Shown: in pieces, positions 3,606 to 38,348 of the stretch
Layout of the letters: each line of letters opens with the position of its first letter
Position numbering within the stretch: the stretch's first letter is position 1
Virus record (IMG/VR): IMGVR_UViG_3300029310_000003
DNA from: a virus
Reading direction: 5' to 3' (one strand)
Length of the DNA stretch: 64,000 nt
Notes under the pieces: model-generated
Told to the model about the DNA's origin: nothing
Seen by the model: the letters and a program-made list of their open reading frames with translations, nothing else
The model's database searches: none
Program-made: the position numbers and the translations under genes

Positions 3606-3794
3606 TTGAGCAATTACAGCGAACGTGATAAAGCCGTTCTGGACAGTCTGGACGAGAACATTCGTCTTGCACCGCGTCTCGGAGTCTGCGCCGATACCTT
3701 CTATGCCCTGAAGCAGGAGTTCCTGCGTGTCATGCGTGAACGCGACGAAGCCATCCAGAAGCTTTCGGAGGTGCAAGCGCATGGCAAACACTGA
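3606..3794 (+). CDS. small hypothetical protein overlapping the integrase start
   Basis: TTG start after GGAGG. 62 aa with a helical C-terminal part. Overlaps the integrase start by 14 nt. A role in directionality is speculation only. Confidence 0.35.
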   Translation: MSNYSERDKAVLDSLDENIRLAPRLGVCADTFYALKQEFLRVMRERDEAIQKLSEVQAHGKH

Positions 3795-5235
3795 TTTGAC
3801 CGTCGCGGCTGCCTATATCCGCGTCTCCACAGAGGATCAGACCGACCTTTCCCCGGAGTCTCAGCTTGAAAAGGTGAAGGAATACGCCGCGAAAAACAAT
3901 ATGCTTCTCCCCAGCGAATTCATTTTCCACGACGATGGTGTTTCCGGCCGTGCGGCAAATAAACGTCCCGGCTTTCAGCGCATGATCGCCGCCGCGAAGG
4001 ACCCCGTGCATCCATTCAGCGTCATCATCGTCTGGAAATATTCCCGATTTGCCCGGAATCAGGAAGAGTCCATTTTCTACAAATCCATTCTCCGCTCGAA
4101 ATGCAACGTTGACGTGATTTCCGTCTCCGAGCCGTTGATCGCCGGCCCCTTTGGAAGTCTGATCGAGCGCATCATCGAGTGGATGGACGAATTCTATTCC
4201 GTCCGCCTTTCGGAAGAGGTCAAGCGCTCCATGACCGTCAACGCGAAGAACGGCGTCCTGCAATCCACCGCTTCCTTCGGCTACAAGGTCGAAAACGGCG
4301 TGCTTGTTCCCGTCCCCGAGGAAGCGGAACTCATCAAAGAGATTTTCCATCGTTTTCTTTCCGGCGAGGGCTTTTACCCCATCGCGCAGGACCTGAATTC
4401 CAGAGGCATCAAAACGCATCGCGGGAGCCGCTTTGAAAACCGCACAGTGGAATACATCATCCGCAATCCCGTTTACATCGGAAAGCTTCGCTGGAATCCG
4501 GCCGGGCGTACCCGCCGGGACTTCCATAACGAAAACATCATCTGCGCCAAAGGCGCTCACGAGCCTCTGATTGACGAAGAGACATGGGAGGCCGCCCAGC
4601 TCCGCGTCGAGCAGTTGAAATCCCAATGGGCATACCATGGCCGTCCATCCTCCGACCGCAAGCACTGGCTCTGCGGCATCGTCCGCTGTGCATCCTGCGG
4701 TGCAACCCTTATCTGGTCCCAGCCGCATTTTTTGAAGTGCAACAATTATGCGCGTGGTTCGTGTAAGACCTCGCAGCACATTGCCGTGGAGCTGATCGAG
4801 GAATCCTTTATCCAGCAGTTGCGTCACGATTTTTCGTTTTCTTCTGAAATCTCCTACCAGATTATCGACATACCAAAGCCGCAGGACACGCGCGCCGGCC
4901 AGCTCCGCCGCAACCGTGACCGCATGTTGTCGCGCCTCGCGCGTTCGCGCGATGCCTACATGAACGGCATCGACTCCCTTGAGGATTACGCCGCAATCAA
5001 GGCATCCATCCAGAAAGAGATCGACCAGATCGACGCGGAGCTGTCCACCCTAGAATCCGCGTCCGGAGCATCCACTGAGGTTTCCATGAAGGATTCCATC
5101 AAACGTACCTTGGAAACGCTGGAATCCGACGCCCCAATCTCGAAAAAGTACGACGCCGTCAAACGCATCATTGACACCTGCACTTTCGATAAGCAAAACA
5201 TGCTTCTTTCCATTGTATACCGCTATGAAATCTGA
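3781..5235 (+). CDS. int: large serine recombinase (phage integrase type)
   Basis: AAAYIRVSTEDQ catalytic-Ser motif, a resolvase N-domain, a recombinase domain, the Cys cluster CGIVRCASCGATL...CNNYARGSC, and a C-terminal coiled coil. Confidence 0.9.
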   Translation: MANTDLTVAAAYIRVSTEDQTDLSPESQLEKVKEYAAKNNMLLPSEFIFHDDGVSGRAANKRPGFQRMIAAAKDPVHPFSVIIVWKYSRFARNQEESIFYKSILRSKCNVDVISVSEPLIAGPFGSLIERIIEWMDEFYSVRLSEEVKRSMTVNAKNGVLQSTASFGYKVENGVLVPVPEEAELIKEIFHRFLSGEGFYPIAQDLNSRGIKTHRGSRFENRTVEYIIRNPVYIGKLRWNPAGRTRRDFHNENIICAKGAHEPLIDEETWEAAQLRVEQLKSQWAYHGRPSSDRKHWLCGIVRCASCGATLIWSQPHFLKCNNYARGSCKTSQHIAVELIEESFIQQLRHDFSFSSEISYQIIDIPKPQDTRAGQLRRNRDRMLSRLARSRDAYMNGIDSLEDYAAIKASIQKEIDQIDAELSTLESASGASTEVSMKDSIKRTLETLESDAPISKKYDAVKRIIDTCTFDKQNMLLSIVYRYEI

Positions 5236-33767: not shown

Positions 33768-34853
33768 ATGAGCTTCCCCAAAGCGTATGAAAAATTTCGG
33801 TCGGCCATGATCGCCTACGAAGATAACCTCCGGGCGTTGGGACGTTCCGGAGTCACGATCAAAAATCAGGAACAGATCTTCAAAAATTTCTCCGGCTTCC
33901 TTCTGGAAAACAAATTGTGGGATCATGAGGAGGGCTTTCCGGAGATCCTCGCATGGCGCGACCAGATGCGCCGGGACGGCAAAAAACCGTCCACCATCAA
34001 GCAGTATCTGACCGTCCTTTCTGCCATGTACAATTTCGCCAGCTCCGAAGAACTCGGCGAAAACCGCTGGTACGACCGGAATCCCGTCGCAAAGCTCCTC
34101 ATGCCGGATACGCGAAAGCTCGACAAGCGACCGTATGAGCAATTTTTGACCGACGAACAGGTCATGCTTCTCTGGCGAAATAACCCTCCCGCGAAAACCG
34201 TGGAAAGCCCGAAATTCTGGCCGCGAAATTACGCCATCGTCATTTTGCTTCTGACAACGGAGCTTCGCAACAGTGAGCTTCTGGCGCTGACGCCTGCGGA
34301 TCTCGACTGGGAAAATTCCGAGCTGTACGTCGAGCACGGCAAGGGCGATAAATTCCGTCCGGTCGAATTCCCGCCGCTTGCGCAGACCGCCGTCCGGCTG
34401 TATCTTCGCAGCGGACTGCGTCCGGCGGCCGCAGGCGACCATGACCCGCTTTTTGGCACGGAGGCAACCAAGGAATTCAAGGGAACCAATCGGGGCGCAG
34501 AATGGCACGCAGGCACACGTCAGTGGCTTTCGGACGTCGTGAAGCGCCATGTAAAAACCGTGACCGGCGTGGATATGATCCGTTCGCACGATTTGCGGCA
34601 CGTCGGCGCACGGCTCGATCTCAACAGCGGCATGAGCTTTGAGGAGCTTCAGGCAAAACTCGGCCATGAATCCGTAGCGACCACGCAGATCTATTCCGGC
34701 AAGCTGACCAGCCGGAAAAACCGCCGTATGACGAAGATCGTGCAGGAGGAGAAGGAACGGCAGGCGCAGCGGAACGTCCTGCGTCTGGAAGAGTCGGGAG
34801 ATGATTTTTTCGAACAGCTCCGGCTGAAACAGCCCCGGCCGGAGATCGCCTGA
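33768..34853 (+). CDS. int: tyrosine recombinase / phage integrase family
   Basis: N-terminal SAM-like domain. HDLRHVGA (H-x-x-R) and GHESVATTQIYSG (catalytic Tyr). Confidence 0.85.
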   Translation: MSFPKAYEKFRSAMIAYEDNLRALGRSGVTIKNQEQIFKNFSGFLLENKLWDHEEGFPEILAWRDQMRRDGKKPSTIKQYLTVLSAMYNFASSEELGENRWYDRNPVAKLLMPDTRKLDKRPYEQFLTDEQVMLLWRNNPPAKTVESPKFWPRNYAIVILLLTTELRNSELLALTPADLDWENSELYVEHGKGDKFRPVEFPPLAQTAVRLYLRSGLRPAAAGDHDPLFGTEATKEFKGTNRGAEWHAGTRQWLSDVVKRHVKTVTGVDMIRSHDLRHVGARLDLNSGMSFEELQAKLGHESVATTQIYSGKLTSRKNRRMTKIVQEEKERQAQRNVLRLEESGDDFFEQLRLKQPRPEIA

Positions 34854-34905
34854 ACAAACCAGAAAAACAGAAATGATCCGGGTTTCGTCGTAAGCCCGGA
34901 GGCAC

Positions 34906-34973
34906 GGCGGAGGCAGGTGCGTCGTGGGGATAACCCACACCCCGCGATTTCGGTTCAAATCCGGATTCCGCCG
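34906..34973 (+). ncRNA. aberrant tRNA-like element A (acceptor + T-arm, no D-arm, no encoded CCA)
   Basis: GGCGGAG/TTCCGCC acceptor, T-arm TTCGG-TTCAAAT-CCGGA, and a central 8-bp stem TCGTGGGG/CCCCGCGA with a 10-nt loop. 68 nt. Confidence 0.3.
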
Positions 34974-35166
34974 CAATGCTGTGAGTTTGGGCATGGCTCA
35001 CAGCTGGTCATAACTGACCTCCTTTCTGTGAAGAAAAGCGTCACCCATGTAAGCGAAGGCGCTCACCGGAACATTTCAGAGATTCCGGTGCTCCAGGCTG
35101 GGAAGCCTGGCCATGGGTTTTCGGGAAGAACGCTCCCGCACCGGAGTAAAACGGGGAGCCATTTAT

Positions 35167-35240
35167 GTGCGTGTAGTTTAATGGCAGAACATCAGACTTC
35201 CAATCTGATGGTGGGAGTTCGATTCTCCTCACGCACTCCA
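35167..35240 (+). tRNA. tRNA-Gly (anticodon UCC)
   Basis: Full cloverleaf: GTGCGTG/CACGCAC acceptor, D GTTT-AATGGCA-GAAC, anticodon arm TCAGA-CTTCCAA-TCTGA, T GGGAG-TTCGATT-CTCCT, encoded CCA. Confidence 0.9.
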
Positions 35241-35607
35241 CATGGGTATTGCGGCGGACTCAGGGAAAGTTTTGAGGTTCCAAAGGCTTGGTGAAACGAT
35301 ATATCCGGCCATCCGCTCAATCTGTAGGTAGTGCAAGTACGACAGATTGCGAATTTAATTAGCTGGCTCCGGCTTAATGTGTGAAAAAACGGATGCGACC
35401 GATGCACCGGCGCAGGGCTGAAAAGTTCCGTGGCTTACCCTCCCGGCCTTCCGACAGTCTGCTGTGAGGCGTAAAGGATGGAAGAAAAACCGGCGTGGCG
35501 ACGCAGACCAACTTCTGCACGGAAGCGTCTAGGCGTCGAGTAACGGCGGCTCCGGAGCCGGGAGGCAGGCTGTAAAAACCAAGAAAAAAAGGCAAGGAGG
35601 AAAACAA

Positions 35608-35931
35608 ATGAGCTTGGAAATTCGCTATCTCACCAACGGCACGAAAAATGTCTACGTCGTCGCAGAGAAGGACGTGGCGCCGGTCGCGGTCCATTTCTAC
35701 AGCGAACGGGACGAAATCCCCTATCAGATCCGTAACTACGCACCGAAAGGAAAGCCAATGTTTGTCGGGCCGGATTCGGCAAGAAACCTTTTTGCAATGA
35801 AAGCCCTGTATCCGGAGCTGATCCACGAATTCTGCGACAAGCAGGAGTACGCCGGATCACCCTGCATCTTCGAGTCGTGCAGCCTCGCGGACTGGAAAAC
35901 CTGCAAATACCGCTGTACCGCAAAAATCTGA
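35608..35931 (+). CDS. hypothetical protein inside the tRNA island
   Basis: 107 aa with RBS AAGGAGGA and a Cys-rich C-terminus. Confidence 0.55.
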   Translation: MSLEIRYLTNGTKNVYVVAEKDVAPVAVHFYSERDEIPYQIRNYAPKGKPMFVGPDSARNLFAMKALYPELIHEFCDKQEYAGSPCIFESCSLADWKTCKYRCTAKI

Positions 35932-35941
35932 ATGAAATCAT

Positions 35942-36009
35942 GCGGCATTTGGCAAAGGGCAGTTACGAGCAGCTGTCCCAAGGCCGTTCGATTCGGTCAC
36001 GCCGCACCA
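35942..36009 (+). ncRNA. aberrant tRNA-like element B (acceptor + T-arm + CCA, no D-arm)
   Basis: GCGGCAT/ACGCCGC acceptor with one A-C mismatch, T-arm GGCCG-TTCGATT-CGGTC, discriminator A plus CCA. The central stem GGGCAG/CTGTCC has a 10-nt loop. 68 nt. Confidence 0.3.
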
Positions 36010-36250
36010 TCGTAAAAATCGTGTGACTAAGGTTTTCGTAGAACGCCGCGCATTTTCAAGATGCAAATCGTTCAGCTTGCCGGAGAAAGCCAACGCGTGG
36101 CAGATCCGGATGAAGTCACTTGAGAAGCCGAACTGACAAAACCGGCCGCACCGGAATCCGGTGTGAAGCGGAAACGGCAGGATGCCGCAAAGAACTGCCC
36201 GTTGGCCAGCGCGCATGGCCTCGCGTCCGGTACGTCAAGCCGGAAACGAC

Positions 36251-36326
36251 GGGCCGTTATCTCAAAGGCTAGAGCAACTCGCTCATAACGGGTAAAATCT
36301 CGGTTCGACTCCGGGACGGCCCACCA
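36251..36326 (+). tRNA. tRNA with CAU anticodon (elongator Met or Ile2/lysidine type)
   Basis: GGGCCGT/ACGGCCC acceptor, anticodon arm ACTCG-CTCATAA-CGGGT, T CTCGG-TTCGACT-CCGGG, encoded ACCA. G1:C72 argues against an initiator. Confidence 0.85.
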
Positions 36327-36354
36327 TGAAATTTTCGGGAAAGGAGGAAAAACC

Positions 36355-36627
36355 ATGAACAAGGAAGCACTTGCACAGGCCGTAGCCAATCGCACGAATA
36401 TGCCGAAGGGCGCAGCGCTGGAATCCATCGACGCGGTTTTCGAAAGCATCCGTGAAGCGCTGATCTCGCACGAGACGGTGAACATTCCGGGCTTCGGAAA
36501 ATTCGAAGCGCCGTATAAGGCGTCCAGAGTCGCAAGAAACCCGGCGACCGGCGGAACCATTTCGGTTCCTGCGCATCACGGCGTGAAATTCGCGCCCGCG
36601 AAGGCGCTGAAGGATGCCGTACATTAA
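36355..36627 (+). CDS. hup: HU-family DNA-binding protein
   Basis: MNKEALAQAVA...VNIPGFGKFEAPYKASRVARNPATGGTISVPAHHGVKFAPAKALKDAV aligns over its full length with the HU consensus. Confidence 0.9.
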   Translation: MNKEALAQAVANRTNMPKGAALESIDAVFESIREALISHETVNIPGFGKFEAPYKASRVARNPATGGTISVPAHHGVKFAPAKALKDAVH

Positions 36628-36696: not shown

Positions 36697-37242
36697 ATGG
36701 AACAGGAAATTCATCGCGGAGACGTATTCTGGATCGCGGATGCACAAACGGCGGTCGGCTCCGAGTACACAAAAACCCGGCCGGCCGTGATCGTGTCCAA
36801 CGAAGCAAATAACCGATACTCCGCAAATCTGGAGATCGTCTGGCTCACAACGGCCAATAAAAAGCCGCTTCCGACGCACGTCACGCTCTATTCCGCACCG
36901 CGCGTATCCGTCGCGCTTTGCGAGTGCGTCACAACGATCTCCAAGGAGCGTCTCCGGGAATATTATTGCACGCTCACGTCGGAGGAAATGGCGCATATCG
37001 ACCGTGCCATCCGCATTTCGCTGGGGCTTCCGGAGCCTGCCGAAAAACCGGAAAAAACCGCATCGTCCGAAAAAACGCCGGATGATCTCCAGCTTTCCAA
37101 CCTCCGCAGCGACTATCAGCTCCTGCTGAAAAAGCACGACGCTCTGCTTGCGCAGCAGGCCGTCTATGAGAAGATCTGCATGGCCTTCATTCCAAACTGG
37201 ACGCCGCAGGCCAAAGCCGCAGAGAACGGGAGCCGCGTATGA
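36697..37242 (+). CDS. PemK/MazF-family endoribonuclease domain with ~70-aa C-terminal extension
   Basis: RGDVFWIADAQTAVGSEYTKTRPAVIVSNE...IVWLTT...PTHVTL...CVTTISKERL, followed by a P/E/K-rich linker and a helical tail. Confidence 0.75.
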   Translation: MEQEIHRGDVFWIADAQTAVGSEYTKTRPAVIVSNEANNRYSANLEIVWLTTANKKPLPTHVTLYSAPRVSVALCECVTTISKERLREYYCTLTSEEMAHIDRAIRISLGLPEPAEKPEKTASSEKTPDDLQLSNLRSDYQLLLKKHDALLAQQAVYEKICMAFIPNWTPQAKAAENGSRV

Positions 37243-38348
37243 TCTACCTCGACCACGCAGCGACCTCTCCCCTTCTGGCCACCGCCCGCCGGGAATTTTA
37301 CCGGGCCTCGCAATTCAGCTGGGGCAACCCAAATTCCGTCCATTCCTTCGGGATCGCAGCCGCGCGGGAGCTGGAAAGAGCGCAGAGGATCGTCGCCTAT
37401 TGCCTTTCATGCAAGCCGGAACAGGTGATCTTCACCTCCTCCGCCACGGAAAGCTGCCGATTTGCCATGAACGCCATGATGTACGAATGCGGCAGCGTCC
37501 ATATTTCCAGCTTTGAGCATAAGGCCGTTTCTGCCGGATGGGAAGACAGTTTCCGCTTTTTCGGGATCAACCGCAGCACCTCCGGCTTCGCACATATCCA
37601 TACCGGCAACGAAACGGGCGAAATTTATGACCTCGCAAAAGCATTCGAGCCGTACACCGTCTGTTTTTCGGACTGCACGGCAGCCATGGGAAAAGCGCCC
37701 CTCGACTTCCGGCATGGAAAATGGTCGTACATCGCGGGCGGCGGACATAAATTCGGCGCACCCATCGGCATCGGCGTCCTGATCGCCAGAAAACCGGAGG
37801 TGATCCGAGAGCTTTTCCATCCGGCAACGCCCGCCGTTCCTCTGGCCGCAGCCCTCGCGCAGGCGCTTTTCTTCCGCACGGAGCATATCGCAGAATTTGC
37901 GGATACCGCCGGATACTTGCATGACCGCCTGATCGATGGTATCATGGAGGAAATTCCAGACGCGCAGCTGAACGGCACGAAATATCGTGGAAACGAAAAA
38001 ACACAGTCGCCCTATATCACGAGCATTTCTTTCCCAAACATCGAAAATCATGCGCTTGTTCTGCGGATGTCCGCCGACGGCCTGATGGCGTCCTCCGGAG
38101 CCGCCTGTTCCAGCGGAGAAAACGAGCCGTCTCCGGTGCTTCTGGAATCCGGCTATCCCGCCGCCCGCGCAAGGAGCGCCGTCCGCTTTTCTCTGGACTA
38201 TAAGCTCGACCCCTGCGCTTACGAATTTTCGCACGATCTTGGCATCGACCGCCGCCGGGACGAAGCCATCATCGACCACGCCGTCAAAATCGTCGCGCAG
38301 AACGTCCGGGAGCTGAAAAAATTATCTCCCGCGCGGGACAAAGCGTAA
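37239..38348 (+). CDS. class-V aminotransferase / cysteine desulfurase (NifS/IscS-like)
   Basis: IYLDHAATSPL, PLP-Lys motif GGGHKFGAPIGIGVL, and catalytic-Cys loop SSGAACSSGENEPSPVL. ATGA overlap with the MazF-like stop. Confidence 0.85.
   Translation: MIYLDHAATSPLLATARREFYRASQFSWGNPNSVHSFGIAAARELERAQRIVAYCLSCKPEQVIFTSSATESCRFAMNAMMYECGSVHISSFEHKAVSAGWEDSFRFFGINRSTSGFAHIHTGNETGEIYDLAKAFEPYTVCFSDCTAAMGKAPLDFRHGKWSYIAGGGHKFGAPIGIGVLIARKPEVIRELFHPATPAVPLAAALAQALFFRTEHIAEFADTAGYLHDRLIDGIMEEIPDAQLNGTKYRGNEKTQSPYITSISFPNIENHALVLRMSADGLMASSGAACSSGENEPSPVLLESGYPAARARSAVRFSLDYKLDPCAYEFSHDLGIDRRRDEAIIDHAVKIVAQNVRELKKLSPARDKA

Follow-up and report, generated by a model that had tools for sequence, protein, structure and literature searches.

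The question raised by this locus is what two tRNA-like elements without a D arm, here called A and B, represent among the canonical tRNAs of a phage genome: leftovers of tRNA genes, tRNAs that still decode, or RNA modules with another function. The window analysed is the complete stretch of 64,000 nucleotides from IMG/VR record IMGVR_UViG_3300029310_000003, and it holds exactly two tRNAs by ARAGORN and by Rfam at the gathering threshold. The block at 34.9-36.3 kb is a one-strand island of structured RNAs inside a tailed-phage genome (Table 1), in which a hairpin, element A, an ‘up’ RNA, tRNA-Gly, a ‘mid’ RNA, the open reading frame ORF107, element B, a spacer and tRNA(CAU) follow one another from 5′ to 3′. 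Within the phage genome it lies between replication genes and tail genes, and these flanking phage genes keep their synteny in viral contigs of 30-120 kb. The clade carrying A and B consists of gut phages of 80-110 kb, probably with an Oscillospiraceae host.

Table 1. The RNA island and its neighbouring genes, in window coordinates.
Feature	Position	Strand	Evidence
Tyrosine recombinase (integrase-family) gene, upstream neighbour	33768..34853	+	Pfam Phage_integrase, E = 7e-18
Hairpin CCGGGUUU-CGUCGU-AAGCCCGG, between integrase stop and A	34878..34899	+	Read from sequence
Element A, subtype A1, tRNA-like	34906..34973	+	Covariance model R1, 80 bits; RNAfold z = -2.6
‘Up’ RNA, conserved, structured	34974..35166	+	RNAalifold, 15 loci: 49 pairs, 10 with double changes
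tRNA-Gly(UCC), encoded CCA	35167..35240	+	ARAGORN; Rfam 71.5 bits
‘Mid’ RNA, ~330 nt, structured; 3′ boundary approximate	35241..35570	+	RNAalifold
ORF107, 107 aa, Cys-rich C-terminus, good ribosome-binding site	35608..35931	+	Open reading frame
Element B, tRNA-like	35942..36009	+	RNAfold z = -2.3; 24-variant comparison
‘Down’ spacer, B to tRNA(CAU), no credible ORF	36010..36250	+	Structure z = -1.2, not significant
tRNA(CAU), encoded CCA	36251..36326	+	ARAGORN; Rfam 50.8 bits
HU-family DNA-binding protein gene, downstream neighbour	36355..36627	+	Pfam Bac_DNA_binding, E = 4e-27
MazF/PemK-like gene	36697-37242	+	Pfam PemK_toxin, E = 1e-21
Class-V aminotransferase (cysteine-desulfurase family) gene	37239-38348	+	Pfam Aminotran_5, E = 2e-24

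The integrase-family gene is syntenic at related loci (62-99% amino-acid identity), and synteny also holds downstream for the HU gene and for the MazF-like and class-V aminotransferase genes. The last two are the RNase and sulfur-transfer genes that a sequence-only reading of this DNA had brought into connection with A and B; both genes are present, but no link to the elements was found. ORF107 is kept in 37 IMG/VR loci with 65-97% amino-acid identity and has no relative in Pfam, PHROG or PDB, and hence offers no functional lead. Between 33500 and 37000, a search for sigma-70-like promoters returned no matches and a search for + strand terminators no convincing candidate.

Both elements have the tRNA-like anatomy originally ascribed to them, which can be read directly in the sequence: an acceptor stem, a canonical T arm and a 10-nt central loop. 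Element A is laid out as GGCGGAG / GCAGGUGC / 9-bp stem with 10-nt loop / UUCGG-UUCAAAU-CCGGA / UUCCGCC / G, with 7/7 acceptor pairs (one of them G.U) and 5/5 T-stem pairs closing the loop UUCAAAU, and its discriminator G is followed by CAA, not CCA. The description of A as lacking a D arm is correct in that there is no D stem-loop, but an 8-nt remnant, the linker GCAGGUGC (GC-AGGU-GC), is retained in its place. Element B reads GCGGCAU / UUGGCAAA / GGGCAG-10 nt-CUG(U)CCC / AA / GGCCG-UUCGAUU-CGGUC / ACGCCGC / A-CCA, the 8-nt linker UUGGCAAA again standing for the D arm and all five T-stem pairs being formed. Its acceptor had been described as a 7-bp stem; it has 6/7 pairs only, made up of 5 bp, a mismatch at A6 that recurs in 24/24 variants, and U7-A. 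The T arms are of the GGTTCRANYCC type (GGTTCAAATCC in A; CGTTCGATTCG in B, where the first and the last base are off-motif), and their stems have 5 bp. Two distances also had to be corrected. A does not directly follow the integrase stop, from which (34853) it is separated by 52 nt including a conserved hairpin, and the gap between the ORF107 stop and B is 10 nt rather than 11. The hairpin is kept in relatives with altered sequence (CAGGUUUG..CAAGCCUGG in L039, CCGGGCUUG..CAAACCCGG in L031) and may protect an mRNA 3′ end.

The two canonical tRNAs had been called perfect cloverleaves with encoded CCA; ARAGORN and Rfam agree on coordinates and CCA, but the D stem of tRNA(CAU) contains one non-standard pair. 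The tRNA-Gly is 97-100% identical among relatives. The G1-C72 pair of tRNA(CAU) argues against an initiator, and 28 nt lie between its 3′ end and the HU gene. A and B are absent from the ARAGORN calls and from matches to the Rfam tRNA model, even at E<=10. We scanned both strands of the window for T loops closed by a 5-bp T stem and accompanied by 6/7 or more acceptor pairs, and the only matches were A, tRNA-Gly, B and tRNA-Met; the same scan of 100 dinucleotide shuffles gave a mean of 1.13 matches, or 0.15 at 7/7 acceptor pairs.

Model R1 finds exactly one A-type match per related locus, upstream of tRNA-Gly, with scores of 53-80 bits. The A family comprises at least seven sequence subtypes with one shared architecture, in which an acceptor stem, an 8-9 nt GG-containing linker, a long central hairpin and a canonical T arm succeed one another. 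Across the family the acceptor stem is 90.7% paired, with 6/7 pairs changed on both sides, and the T stem is 100% paired, with three of its five pairs so changed. The covariation score, whose counts are of sequences rather than independent events and whose alignment was fitted to the model, is 0.523 vs 0.200 in shuffles, none of 500 of which reach it, and slid partners score <=0.16; the majority of the related contigs come from a single large gut dataset. Subtypes are 62-70% identical to each other, and the neighbouring integrase and ORF107 genes show ~72% and ~68-70% nucleotide identity. Element A is thus as divergent as the neighbouring genes yet still paired, which is the pattern predicted for a signal of structure only. 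The central loops, 7-10 nt in length, are unrelated across subtypes (AUAACCCACA, UUCAUAGU, CUCAUCU, CUACAAAA and others), and CCA is encoded in subtypes A2, A3 and A5. A relaxed ARAGORN search proposed a hidden tRNA-Gly(CCC) at 34898-34974 instead of A; we rejected this candidate, which has two acceptor mismatches and A33, and whose shifted acceptor is impossible in other subtypes.

The A model does not match B at E<=1, and despite their common architecture the two were not merged into a single family. The B family, drawn from viral and metagenome contigs, has 24 distinct variants with 92% identity and 93% pairing; they differ mainly at the bulge, at the mismatch partner and at the junctions. 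One T-stem pair, 44-54, is compensatory (AU in 15 variants, CG in 8, GU in 1). Against distant relatives B is 81-84% identical, with an invariant loop core, ACGAGCA. In the same phages the neighbouring protein gene reaches only ~68-70% nucleotide identity, and B is far more conserved in sequence than a purely structural signal needs, which hints at a sequence-specific partner. The equivalent of U33 is not conserved (UUACGAG in the window, CGACGAG, with G, in most variants), and several variants end in CCG or CCAU in place of CCA. Mimicry of a TadA substrate or of tRNA-Arg(ACG) was considered and set aside as speculation only: although ACG is the same in every variant, the equivalent of U33 is not, and the loop has 10 nt. 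The idea that A and B are functional therefore holds in the sense that both are under selection, visible as heavy compensatory change in A and as high identity beside a much less conserved gene in B. Compensatory conservation in relatives, which the sequence-only reading had named as a check, is present in both families, at the acceptor and T-stem pairs of A and at the single T-stem pair of B.

The hairpin-rich flanks of these elements are a larger find than A and B themselves. All three had been described as ORF-poor and full of hairpins; ORF-poor they are, but structure is found in 34974-35166 and 35241-~35570 and not significantly in 36010-36250. The up RNA fills the stretch from the 3′ end of A to tRNA-Gly: whatever the subtype, it begins at the discriminator of A (CAAUGCYG.. 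or CCAGCCG..), and it stops where tRNA-Gly starts. An invariant 10-mer within it, CCUCCUUUCU at 35018-35027, occurs once in the window vs 0.12 expected and is a perfect copy of the anti-Shine-Dalgarno tail of 16S rRNA. The mid RNA begins straight after the CCA of tRNA-Gly and has an invariant core at 35392-35429 that recurs in at least 119 IMG/VR contigs. Six close relatives share it at 97-99% identity and 27 of the distant loci at 82-90%; in L008/L009 only the last ~60 nt match. Within the clade RNAalifold predicts 87 pairs, 11 of which show double changes; for 21 diverse members the figures are 47 and 22. It has no match in Rfam 15, and Rfam scans by gathering threshold and by E-value over the window island and 26 related loci yielded tRNAs and noise only. 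A reduced RNase P RNA was rejected as an identity for the mid RNA: GGAAAGU, ACGACAGA and CCGGCUUA resemble P4 strands by eye, but P4 cannot form, the alifold structure pairs these words otherwise, and the Rfam RNase P models do not match. The down spacer is conserved in close relatives only, save for ~45 nt (36199-36243) upstream of tRNA-Met that are found in all loci. Protein-coding interpretations of the flanks also fail. Open reading frames on the + strand overlap the tRNAs, those on the minus strand are antisense to the conserved RNAs, and alignment indels in the up and mid RNAs are not multiples of three. A minus-strand AGGAGG-ATG at 35027-35009 is followed by an open frame of just 18 codons here, and in L039 by one of 45 codons without relation to these.

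At 87 of the 90 evaluable loci with a mid-RNA core, the 5′ end of the RNA is abutted by a tRNA or a degenerate tRNA-shaped module, defined by at least 6/7 acceptor pairs and an NCCA or NCAA end. Thirty of these modules are ARAGORN tRNAs of many identities and 57 are uncalled tRNA-like elements, some of which keep a D arm together with a degenerate anticodon arm. The module types are interchangeable (Trp, Thr, Gly, Met, Ser, Cys and degenerate forms); the geometry is fixed, with zero spacer bases between module and RNA and a module-to-core spacing of 127-135 or 151-156 nt. In many loci a tRNA-Gly begins at a constant 156 nt past the core. The precise placement of tRNA-shaped modules, with nearly any body, where structured RNAs begin and where ORFs end fits handles for processing or maturation.

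A and B exist, are conserved, covary and lie exactly at RNA and ORF boundaries. The explanation that we favour, with our confidence about evenly divided, is that they would be tRNA-shaped modules without a decoding role, to which RNase P, RNase Z and the CCA-adding enzyme are recruited so that a polycistronic transcript is cut. The half of the tRNA that is retained, namely the acceptor stem and the T arm with its canonical T loop, would be the part read by processing enzymes; the GG of the linker could form the elbow contact, and the discriminator followed by CCA or near-CCA would have been kept for processing. In place of the anticodon arm there is a long hairpin, the loop of which would be free to vary, and the D arm is down to 8 nt. 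Features needed for decoding, the loops in A and U33 in B, are not conserved, which supports a non-decoding role.

The transcription, cleavages and enzymes that we infer for A and B would come into play in three steps. The co-directional block would be transcribed as long precursors, in keeping with the negative promoter and terminator searches, and RNase P would then cut at the 5′ end of each module and so fix where the mRNA or other RNA upstream of it ends, leaving the integrase mRNA capped by the hairpin in front of A and the ORF107 mRNA with an end ~10 nt past its stop. RNase Z or exonucleases, together with the CCA-adding enzyme, would finish the 3′ end of the module and thereby free the structured RNA that follows at its 5′ end. 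The small CCA-ended by-products might themselves have a role. Besides the sequence conservation of B, three features fit this scheme less well. A long central helix is present in all A subtypes, which speaks against processing handles since RNase P and RNase Z need the acceptor/T minihelix only. CCA is an anti-determinant for Bacillus-type RNase Z, and because the mid RNA abuts an encoded CCA its 5′ end would need another nuclease. Finally, the spacer after B lacks conserved structure, and B is thus not obviously liberating an RNA in the window.

It is also conceivable, if unlikely, that A and B act in trans as free, CCA-ended tRNA mimics of ~65 nt that compete with host tRNAs, possible targets being a tRNA-binding enzyme, a toxin, a defence nuclease or T-box leaders. 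Such a role would be in line with the CCA encoded in B and in three A subtypes, with the conserved elbow-forming GG and T loop, and with the central helix of A, whose length is close to that of an anticodon helix stacked on a D helix (in the Rfam alignment of L038, 9 bp = 5 + 4). The acceptor stem and loop of A have diversified rapidly, as an arms race would predict; the anticodon-like loop that a decoy would need, however, varies in both sequence and length. The invariant loop core of B points towards a mimic, the CCG and CCAU ends of several B variants away from it. A MazF-like RNase gene is syntenic downstream, but neither element has a defence or anti-defence gene linked to it in particular, and elsewhere the same positions hold ordinary tRNAs or other degenerate modules, so that a generic shape fits better than a specific target. 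The decoy role that the sequence-only reading had suggested, with anticodon nucleases, tRNA-modifying enzymes or CCA-adding enzymes as targets, is neither supported nor contradicted by the evidence.

In a broader and likewise rather improbable interpretation, the island would represent a class of “tRNA-tethered” phage RNAs, in which the module is the obligatory partner of a ~330-nt gut-phage RNA and A and B are D-arm-less mimics with a job of their own at the ribosome, EF-Tu, T-box leaders or tRNA-targeting toxins. Combined with the anti-Shine-Dalgarno copy in the up RNA, this would hint at manipulation of translation by the island. We regard it as less probable still that the tRNA-shaped modules remain uncut, as covalent domains of larger RNAs (A with the up RNA, a tRNA with the mid RNA), comparable to the tRNA-like part of tmRNA. 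The missing spacer, the fixed core spacing and the presence of a module at almost every mid-RNA locus would be expected of such domains, and the large phage RNAs GOLLD and ROOL lie near tRNA islands, with tRNAs at times within the GOLLD linker (PMC12286853). The free exchange of module types argues against this arrangement, as does the fact that we saw no covariation between module and RNA; canonical CCA-encoding tRNAs, such as the tRNA-Gly here, are moreover expected to be matured and released.

That A and B are genuine decoding tRNAs without a D arm, as in some mitochondria, is very improbable. In its metazoan-mitochondrial mode ARAGORN calls B (35941-36008) a D-replacement-loop tRNA-Arg(acg) and does not call A; the A6 homologue L038:3093-3159 exceeds the gathering score of the Rfam tRNA model (32.3 vs 29 bits), with the D arm deleted in the alignment, and some A subtypes have 7-nt loops starting with CU (CUCAUCU, CUCACGA). 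The loop of A in the window has 10 nt, however, and subtype loops have 7-10 nt; subtype A3 has a pyrimidine at position 37, and in B the stem is bulged and the U33 equivalent is G in most variants. D-armless tRNAs are not known to be used by bacterial EF-Tu and ribosomes.

The least credible explanation, and one now largely refuted, is that A and B are non-functional leftovers, either decaying tRNA pseudogenes or tRNA 3′ fragments in an attP site beside the integrase, as the sequence-only reading had also considered: A does adjoin an integrase-family gene, plain BLAST conservation in distant relatives does begin within its T arm, and L005-L007 do carry an extra tRNA-Gly between the A2 element and the shared tRNA-Gly, but A has its own 5′ acceptor strand, kept paired with the 3′ strand by double changes in seven subtypes, the island is phage-internal, exact 25-mers from the 3′ halves of A1 and A5/A6 have 0 matches in a collection of 185,579 species genomes (exact matches only), and B is 92% conserved whereas its flanks are replaced.

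Annotations of phage tRNA islands usually list the tRNAs and leave the spacers “empty”, and here both the spacers and A and B are conserved content. New in this island are two families of non-decoding tRNA look-alikes and two structured RNAs outside Rfam 15, one of them in at least 119 viral contigs; the literature searched contains no account of D-arm-less tRNA-like elements or of the mid RNA in phages. If A and B are processing handles, some bacteriophages would use mitochondria-like tRNA punctuation to cut polycistronic transcripts and make non-coding RNAs, and degenerate phage “tRNA pseudogenes” would have to be re-read as processing signals. Activity in trans would make them viral tRNA mimics of a new kind. 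The mid RNA is a further phage RNA associated with tRNA islands, alongside GOLLD and ROOL, and its boundaries are adequate for structural and biochemical work.

As processing handles, A and B would resemble most closely the t-elements of plant mitochondria and the mascRNA of MALAT1. mascRNA and MEN-beta are non-decoding tRNA-shaped modules fused to MALAT1 and NEAT1; RNase P and RNase Z set the ends of module and long RNA alike, and the released module carries a CCA tail. Unlike A and B they are eukaryotic and nuclear, with the module 3′ of a long RNA, and the Rfam model mascRNA-menRNA has no match in the island. Mitochondrial tRNAs that lack the D arm (metazoan tRNA-Ser(AGY), nematode tRNAs) share with A and B the acceptor stem, the T arm and a short D loop, but have 7-nt anticodon loops, against 10 nt here, and dedicated factors. 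A tmRNA was not found by ARAGORN, and the position 3 pair is C-G in A and G-C in B, not G3.U70.

Among phage RNAs, the T4 stable RNAs are non-tRNA molecules matured by the tRNA machinery and co-located with tRNA genes. The phi80 M3 and P1/P7 C4 RNAs, which are likewise cleaved by RNase P and matured by tRNA-processing machinery (PMC11143913), parallel what is proposed for A and B; M3, C4 and the T4 RNAs nevertheless have no sequence relationship to them and are not D-armless look-alikes with canonical T loops. Fragments of tRNA genes at integration sites (PMC9897764) adjoin an integrase, as A does, and are missed or mis-scored by tRNA finders, but they are 3′ (or 5′) pieces identical to the host tRNA and have no partner strand, whereas A has a covarying 5′ strand. 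The mid RNA is comparable to GOLLD and ROOL, which occur in phages and prophages next to tRNA islands, with tRNAs sometimes embedded or adjacent (PMC12286853, PMC5737381): all are phage-encoded RNAs of complex conserved fold and unknown function that lie by tRNAs. The GOLLD and ROOL Rfam models have no match at E<=10 in the window island or at E<=1 in seven other loci, and the mid RNA differs from them in its size (~330-400 nt vs 580-800 nt or more) and in its strict head-to-tail junction with a tRNA-shaped module.

The t-elements are organellar and their role was demonstrated by end mapping. A and B are phage-encoded and differ further in their regular, conserved architecture of 8-nt linker and long hairpin, in forming sequence families and in flanking structured non-coding RNAs as well as mRNAs. 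Like A and B, however, t-elements are non-canonical and keep the acceptor stem and T arm; they lie at the 5′ and 3′ ends of mRNAs, where they are cleaved by RNase P and RNase Z, and once released they can receive CCA (PMC1920247).

Two tRNAs, and no others, are called in the 64-kb window by ARAGORN and by Rfam with its curated thresholds: tRNA-Gly(UCC) and tRNA(CAU), each where the sequence-only reading had placed it. Elements A and B are called by neither at these thresholds, and relaxing the Rfam cut-off to E ≤ 10 across 34700-36500 brought up only noise over them. The tRNA-like anatomy attributed to A and B is present in the sequence, and each folds independently into a three-way junction (z = -2.6 for A and -2.3 for B). 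Some details of that description had to be amended. The 7-bp acceptor stem of B contains an A6.C mismatch, the central stem of A has 9 bp rather than 6-8 bp, and A, which does lie downstream of the integrase gene, starts 52 nt beyond its stop, with a hairpin in between. This hairpin is kept in relatives with an altered stem sequence and, as it lacks a U tract, is not a typical terminator. A purpose-written scan, which required a T loop with a 5-bp T stem and six or more of seven acceptor pairs, covered the entire window in both orientations and matched only A, B and the two tRNAs; 100 dinucleotide shuffles gave a mean of 1.13 matches (0.15 with a perfect acceptor stem).

Features of the island and its neighbours, with the sequence subtypes of the A family
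Feature	Position	Strand	Description
Tyrosine-recombinase gene	33768-34853	+	upstream neighbour of the island
Hairpin	34878-34899	+	CCGGGUUU-CGUCGU-AAGCCCGG, between integrase stop and A
A (subtype A1)	34906-34973	+	GGCGGAG / GCAGGUGC / GUCGUGGGG-AUAACCCACA-CCCCGCGAU / UUCGG-UUCAAAU-CCGGA / UUCCGCC / G, then CAA; acceptor GGCGGAG/UUCCGCC, central loop AUAACCCACA
Up RNA	34974-35166		invariant CCUCCUUUCU at 35018-35027
tRNA-Gly(UCC)	35167-35240	+	encoded CCA; ARAGORN and Rfam curated thresholds
Mid RNA	35241-~35570		invariant core GAUGCGACCGANNNACCGGCGCAGGGCUGAAAAGUUCC at 35392-35429
ORF107	35608-35931		107-aa ORF
B	35942-36009	+	GCGGCAU / UUGGCAAA / GGGCAG-UUACGAGCAG-CUG(U)CCC / AA / GGCCG-UUCGAUU-CGGUC / ACGCCGC / A-CCA
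tRNA(CAU)	36251-36326	+	encoded CCA; ARAGORN and Rfam curated thresholds
HU, MazF/PemK-like and class-V aminotransferase genes		+	downstream of the island; domain matches
Subtype A2			acceptor GGGAAAA/UUUUCCC, central loop AACAUAAAG
Subtype A3			acceptor GGAGAUG/CGUCUCC, central loop CUCAUCU or CUUAUCC
Subtype A4			acceptor GGCAGGA/UCUCGCC, central loop CUACAAAA
Subtype A5			acceptor GAUGGGA/UCCCACC, central loop CUCACGA
Subtype A6			acceptor GGUGGAA/UUCCACC, central loop UUCAUAGU
Subtype A7			acceptor GCAAGGG/CCCUUGC

The window belongs to a tailed phage encoding a tape-measure protein, a tail fibre, a helicase and a large serine recombinase (3727-5235; PHROG integrase, E = 2e-106), and the presence of a protein with a Spo0A-C domain suggests that its host is a member of the Firmicutes. 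Given the serine recombinase, the tyrosine recombinase beside A may not be the integration enzyme. The island is internal to the phage genome. With ORF107 as bait, 37 IMG/VR loci were retrieved (65-97% amino-acid identity), mostly from one very large gut dataset, so that counts of relatives are of sequences and not of independent events. The large majority share the order int - A - tRNA-Gly - conserved RNA - ORF107 - ... - tRNA-Met - HU - MazF - aminotransferase; an integrase match was not found in L013, L017, L035 and L036, nor any of the flanking genes in L008/L009. ORF107 has a Cys-rich C-terminus (C..C....C.......C...C), is conserved within this phage clade only and has no relatives in Pfam, PHROG or PDB. 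The MazF-like protein (181 aa) extends C-terminally past its toxin domain. Genes for HU and the class-V aminotransferase (cysteine-desulfurase family; within 36697-38348) also stand behind the tRNA/RNA island of distant phages (L002, L103, L107 and others), at 38% and 32-38% identity, respectively.

Plain BLAST recovered full-length A from three near-identical relatives only. The same position in other loci holds an element of A's architecture but different sequence, and at least seven subtypes could be told apart. All share a linker with GG (GCAGGUGC, GCGGGCGC or CAAUGGCGC), a central hairpin of 8-9 bp where readable, little or no variable region, and a 5-bp T stem with a UUCRAYU loop; the discriminator is followed by CCA in A2, A3 and A5 and by CAA in A1, A4 and A6. 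When a covariance model was trained on 16 members, it gave one match per locus at 53-80 bits, compared with only ~20 bits for real tRNAs, and did not find B. In the alignment fitted to this model, pairing reaches 90.7% in the acceptor stem, where six of seven pairs show double changes, and 100% in the T stem, where three of five do. The covariation score is 0.523 versus 0.200 in shuffles (0 of 500 reach 0.523), and slid partners give at most 0.16. Only 67% of the central helix is paired in this alignment; its length varies by subtype, yet the hairpin folds in each. Subtypes are 62-70% identical to each other, which makes A as divergent at the nucleotide level as the neighbouring integrase (~72%) and ORF107 (68-70%), and the constraint on A is therefore one of shape, not sequence. 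One A6 member exceeds the Rfam tRNA threshold (32.3 bits). Its acceptor stem, T arm and a 5-bp anticodon stem are aligned with the D arm deleted, and four added pairs lengthen the anticodon helix to that of a stacked anticodon-plus-D helix.

Almost every related locus has a B homologue, at a distance from ORF107 that varies; homologues are also present in ~50 metagenome contigs, mostly human-gut assemblies of 80-110 kb. Across the 24 distinct variants, identity is 92% and pairing 93%. T-stem pair 44-54 is AU in 15, CG in 8 and GU in 1, one clean compensatory exchange with its intermediate, and the adjacent pair is G.U in some variants and G-C in others. All 24 keep the A6 mismatch; most of the variation falls in the bulge, at the partner of A6, at the junctions and along the 3' tail (ACCA, ACCG, GCCA, CCAU). 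The loop core ACGAGCA is invariant, but the U33-equivalent position is not. In its metazoan-mitochondrial mode, ARAGORN accepts B as a D-replacement-loop tRNA-Arg(acg) and does not accept A. Because B remains 81-84% identical between clades whose B flanks are wholly replaced, it is under sequence constraint beyond shape. Both elements, then, are real and conserved, with covarying stems in related phages and with decoding features lost.

The flanks of A, B and the tRNAs are a larger finding than A and B themselves. All three had been described as rich in hairpins; the first two are conserved structured RNAs, the up RNA (between A and tRNA-Gly) and the mid RNA (after tRNA-Gly), while 36010-36250, after B, has no significant structure and is conserved in close relatives only, save for ~45 nt before tRNA-Met. 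Identity of the mid RNA is 82-90% across 27 of the distant relatives and rises to 97-99% in six close ones, with no more than its last ~60 nt matching in L008/L009; where the RNA is present, no neighbouring protein gene is as well conserved. Among the 87 pairs predicted by RNAalifold, 11 show double changes, and the structure includes a closing helix (CAUGG/CCGUG) directly after tRNA-Gly and a GAAA-capped hairpin. At least 119 IMG/VR contigs carry the mid-RNA core, many of those listed being ~40-kb with different neighbouring genes, as do two unannotated GenBank gut phages; the genome searches, all exact-match, hit just three bacterial metagenome-assembled genomes (Oscillospiraceae, Oscillibacter, Eubacteriales). 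Of the 47 consensus pairs of 21 diverse members, 22 show compensatory changes. No match to the mid RNA was found among the Rfam 15 families. Members of the family (L100-L198, L001, L002 and the window) have a core of three helices that is invariant, along with a GAAA tetraloop and a long-range helix with strong covariation. The up RNA has a conserved structure of 49 pairs (10 with double changes) and starts at A's discriminator in every subtype. Its invariant CCUCCUUUCU, found nowhere else in the window, is identical to the anti-Shine-Dalgarno 3' tail of Firmicutes 16S rRNA. The minus strand there reads as a ribosome-binding site and ATG; the ORFs are short and not conserved.

The boundaries of A and B coincide exactly with conserved RNAs and ORF ends, and a tRNA, A or B stands at every coding/non-coding boundary of the island bar that from mid RNA to ORF107. 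This arrangement is general across phage groups. Of 90 evaluable loci that carry the mid-RNA core, 87 have an element that abuts the RNA's 5' end, at a fixed distance from the core (127-135 or 151-156 nt), and that shows six or more of seven acceptor pairs and an NCCA/NCAA end. Thirty are ARAGORN tRNAs, several of them odd (Trp, Thr, Gly, Met, Ser, Cys and others); another 27, not called, are tRNA-like and possess a T arm, some of them retaining a D arm beside a degenerate anticodon arm; and 30 are other acceptor-stemmed elements; what is required there thus appears to be something tRNA-shaped and no particular tRNA. In many loci tRNA-Gly starts 156 nt past the core. A second, different tRNA-Gly(UCC) lies between A2 and the shared tRNA-Gly in the close relatives L005-L007 (3345-3418), and several distant loci carry another tRNA-Gly(UCC) sequence (CCAGCAUUGG...) in place of the shared one, indicating that tRNA bodies are swapped and the position kept.

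Further elements were seen in relatives. An 89-nt element (GCGGCAUAGGUGCCCCGUAAGGGG...GCAGGGCAGGACUGCAAUGCCGUACCA; L101, L102, L112, L123 and others) stands in for a tRNA ahead of the mid RNA in many ~40-kb phage contigs, with a 7-bp acceptor stem, an ACCA end and a non-canonical GGCAGGA loop where the T loop is expected; its first seven bases equal B's 5' acceptor strand. Most relatives have, between ORF107 and B, a 122-nt element (UAUGCGGUGCAGG...GCGGGGUUCAAAUCCCCGCCGCAUCCACC; L003:4367-4488, L039:4723-4844 and equivalents) that combines an acceptor-like stem and a 6-bp T arm with a large central domain; it is absent from the window through a ~170-nt deletion relative to L003. More tRNA-like elements uncalled by ARAGORN occur just upstream of tRNA-Pro (L026:4977-5060, L026:4847-4953, L039 ~4335-4420), one of them 84 nt long and tRNA-Ser(UGA)-like with a long variable arm.

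The best-supported reading, to which we give roughly even credence, takes A and B for tRNA-shaped modules without a decoding role, which would recruit the tRNA-maturation machinery to punctuate long transcripts. Cleavage by RNase P at their 5' ends would leave the integrase mRNA ending behind the conserved hairpin in the case of A and create the ORF107 mRNA end in the case of B; at their 3' ends, RNase Z or exonucleases together with the CCA-adding enzyme would free the 5' end of the next RNA. The island block is co-directional, and neither a sigma-70-like promoter nor a good terminator was found inside it. The transcription, the cleavages and the enzymes are what we infer. Four observations fit the processing reading poorly: the strong sequence conservation of B, the long central helix kept in all A subtypes, the adjoining of the mid RNA to an encoded CCA, and the lack of a structured RNA after B in the window.

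That A and B act in trans as mimics or decoys is a less likely explanation, one that would suit the encoded CCA, the conserved elbow and the fast diversification of A; A's loop, however, is not conserved, and arbitrary tRNAs fill the same slot elsewhere. Somewhat less likely still, the modules might be covalently tethered domains of larger RNAs, a reading compatible with junctions that have no spacer and with reports on GOLLD. Genuine D-armless decoders are improbable, being contradicted by the loop data. Pseudogenes or att scars, among the origins first suggested, are the least credible, contradicted by the covariation and by the exact-match database searches.

In function, A and B come closest to t-elements and mascRNA, and in shape to D-arm-lacking mitochondrial tRNAs. 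The mascRNA module of MALAT1 is a precedent for a tRNA-like processing module. So are the t-elements of plant mitochondria (PMC1920247), and phage-encoded RNase P substrates are also precedented (PMC11143913). The corresponding Rfam models gave no match, and our literature search found no description of A/B-like elements. We class A and B with the tRNA-like modules known for processing or mimicry; what is new is their occurrence in phages, as two sequence families. The mid RNA is closest in genomic context to GOLLD and ROOL (PMC12286853, PMC5737381), and, itself uncatalogued, it joins the loose set of phage RNAs associated with tRNA islands.
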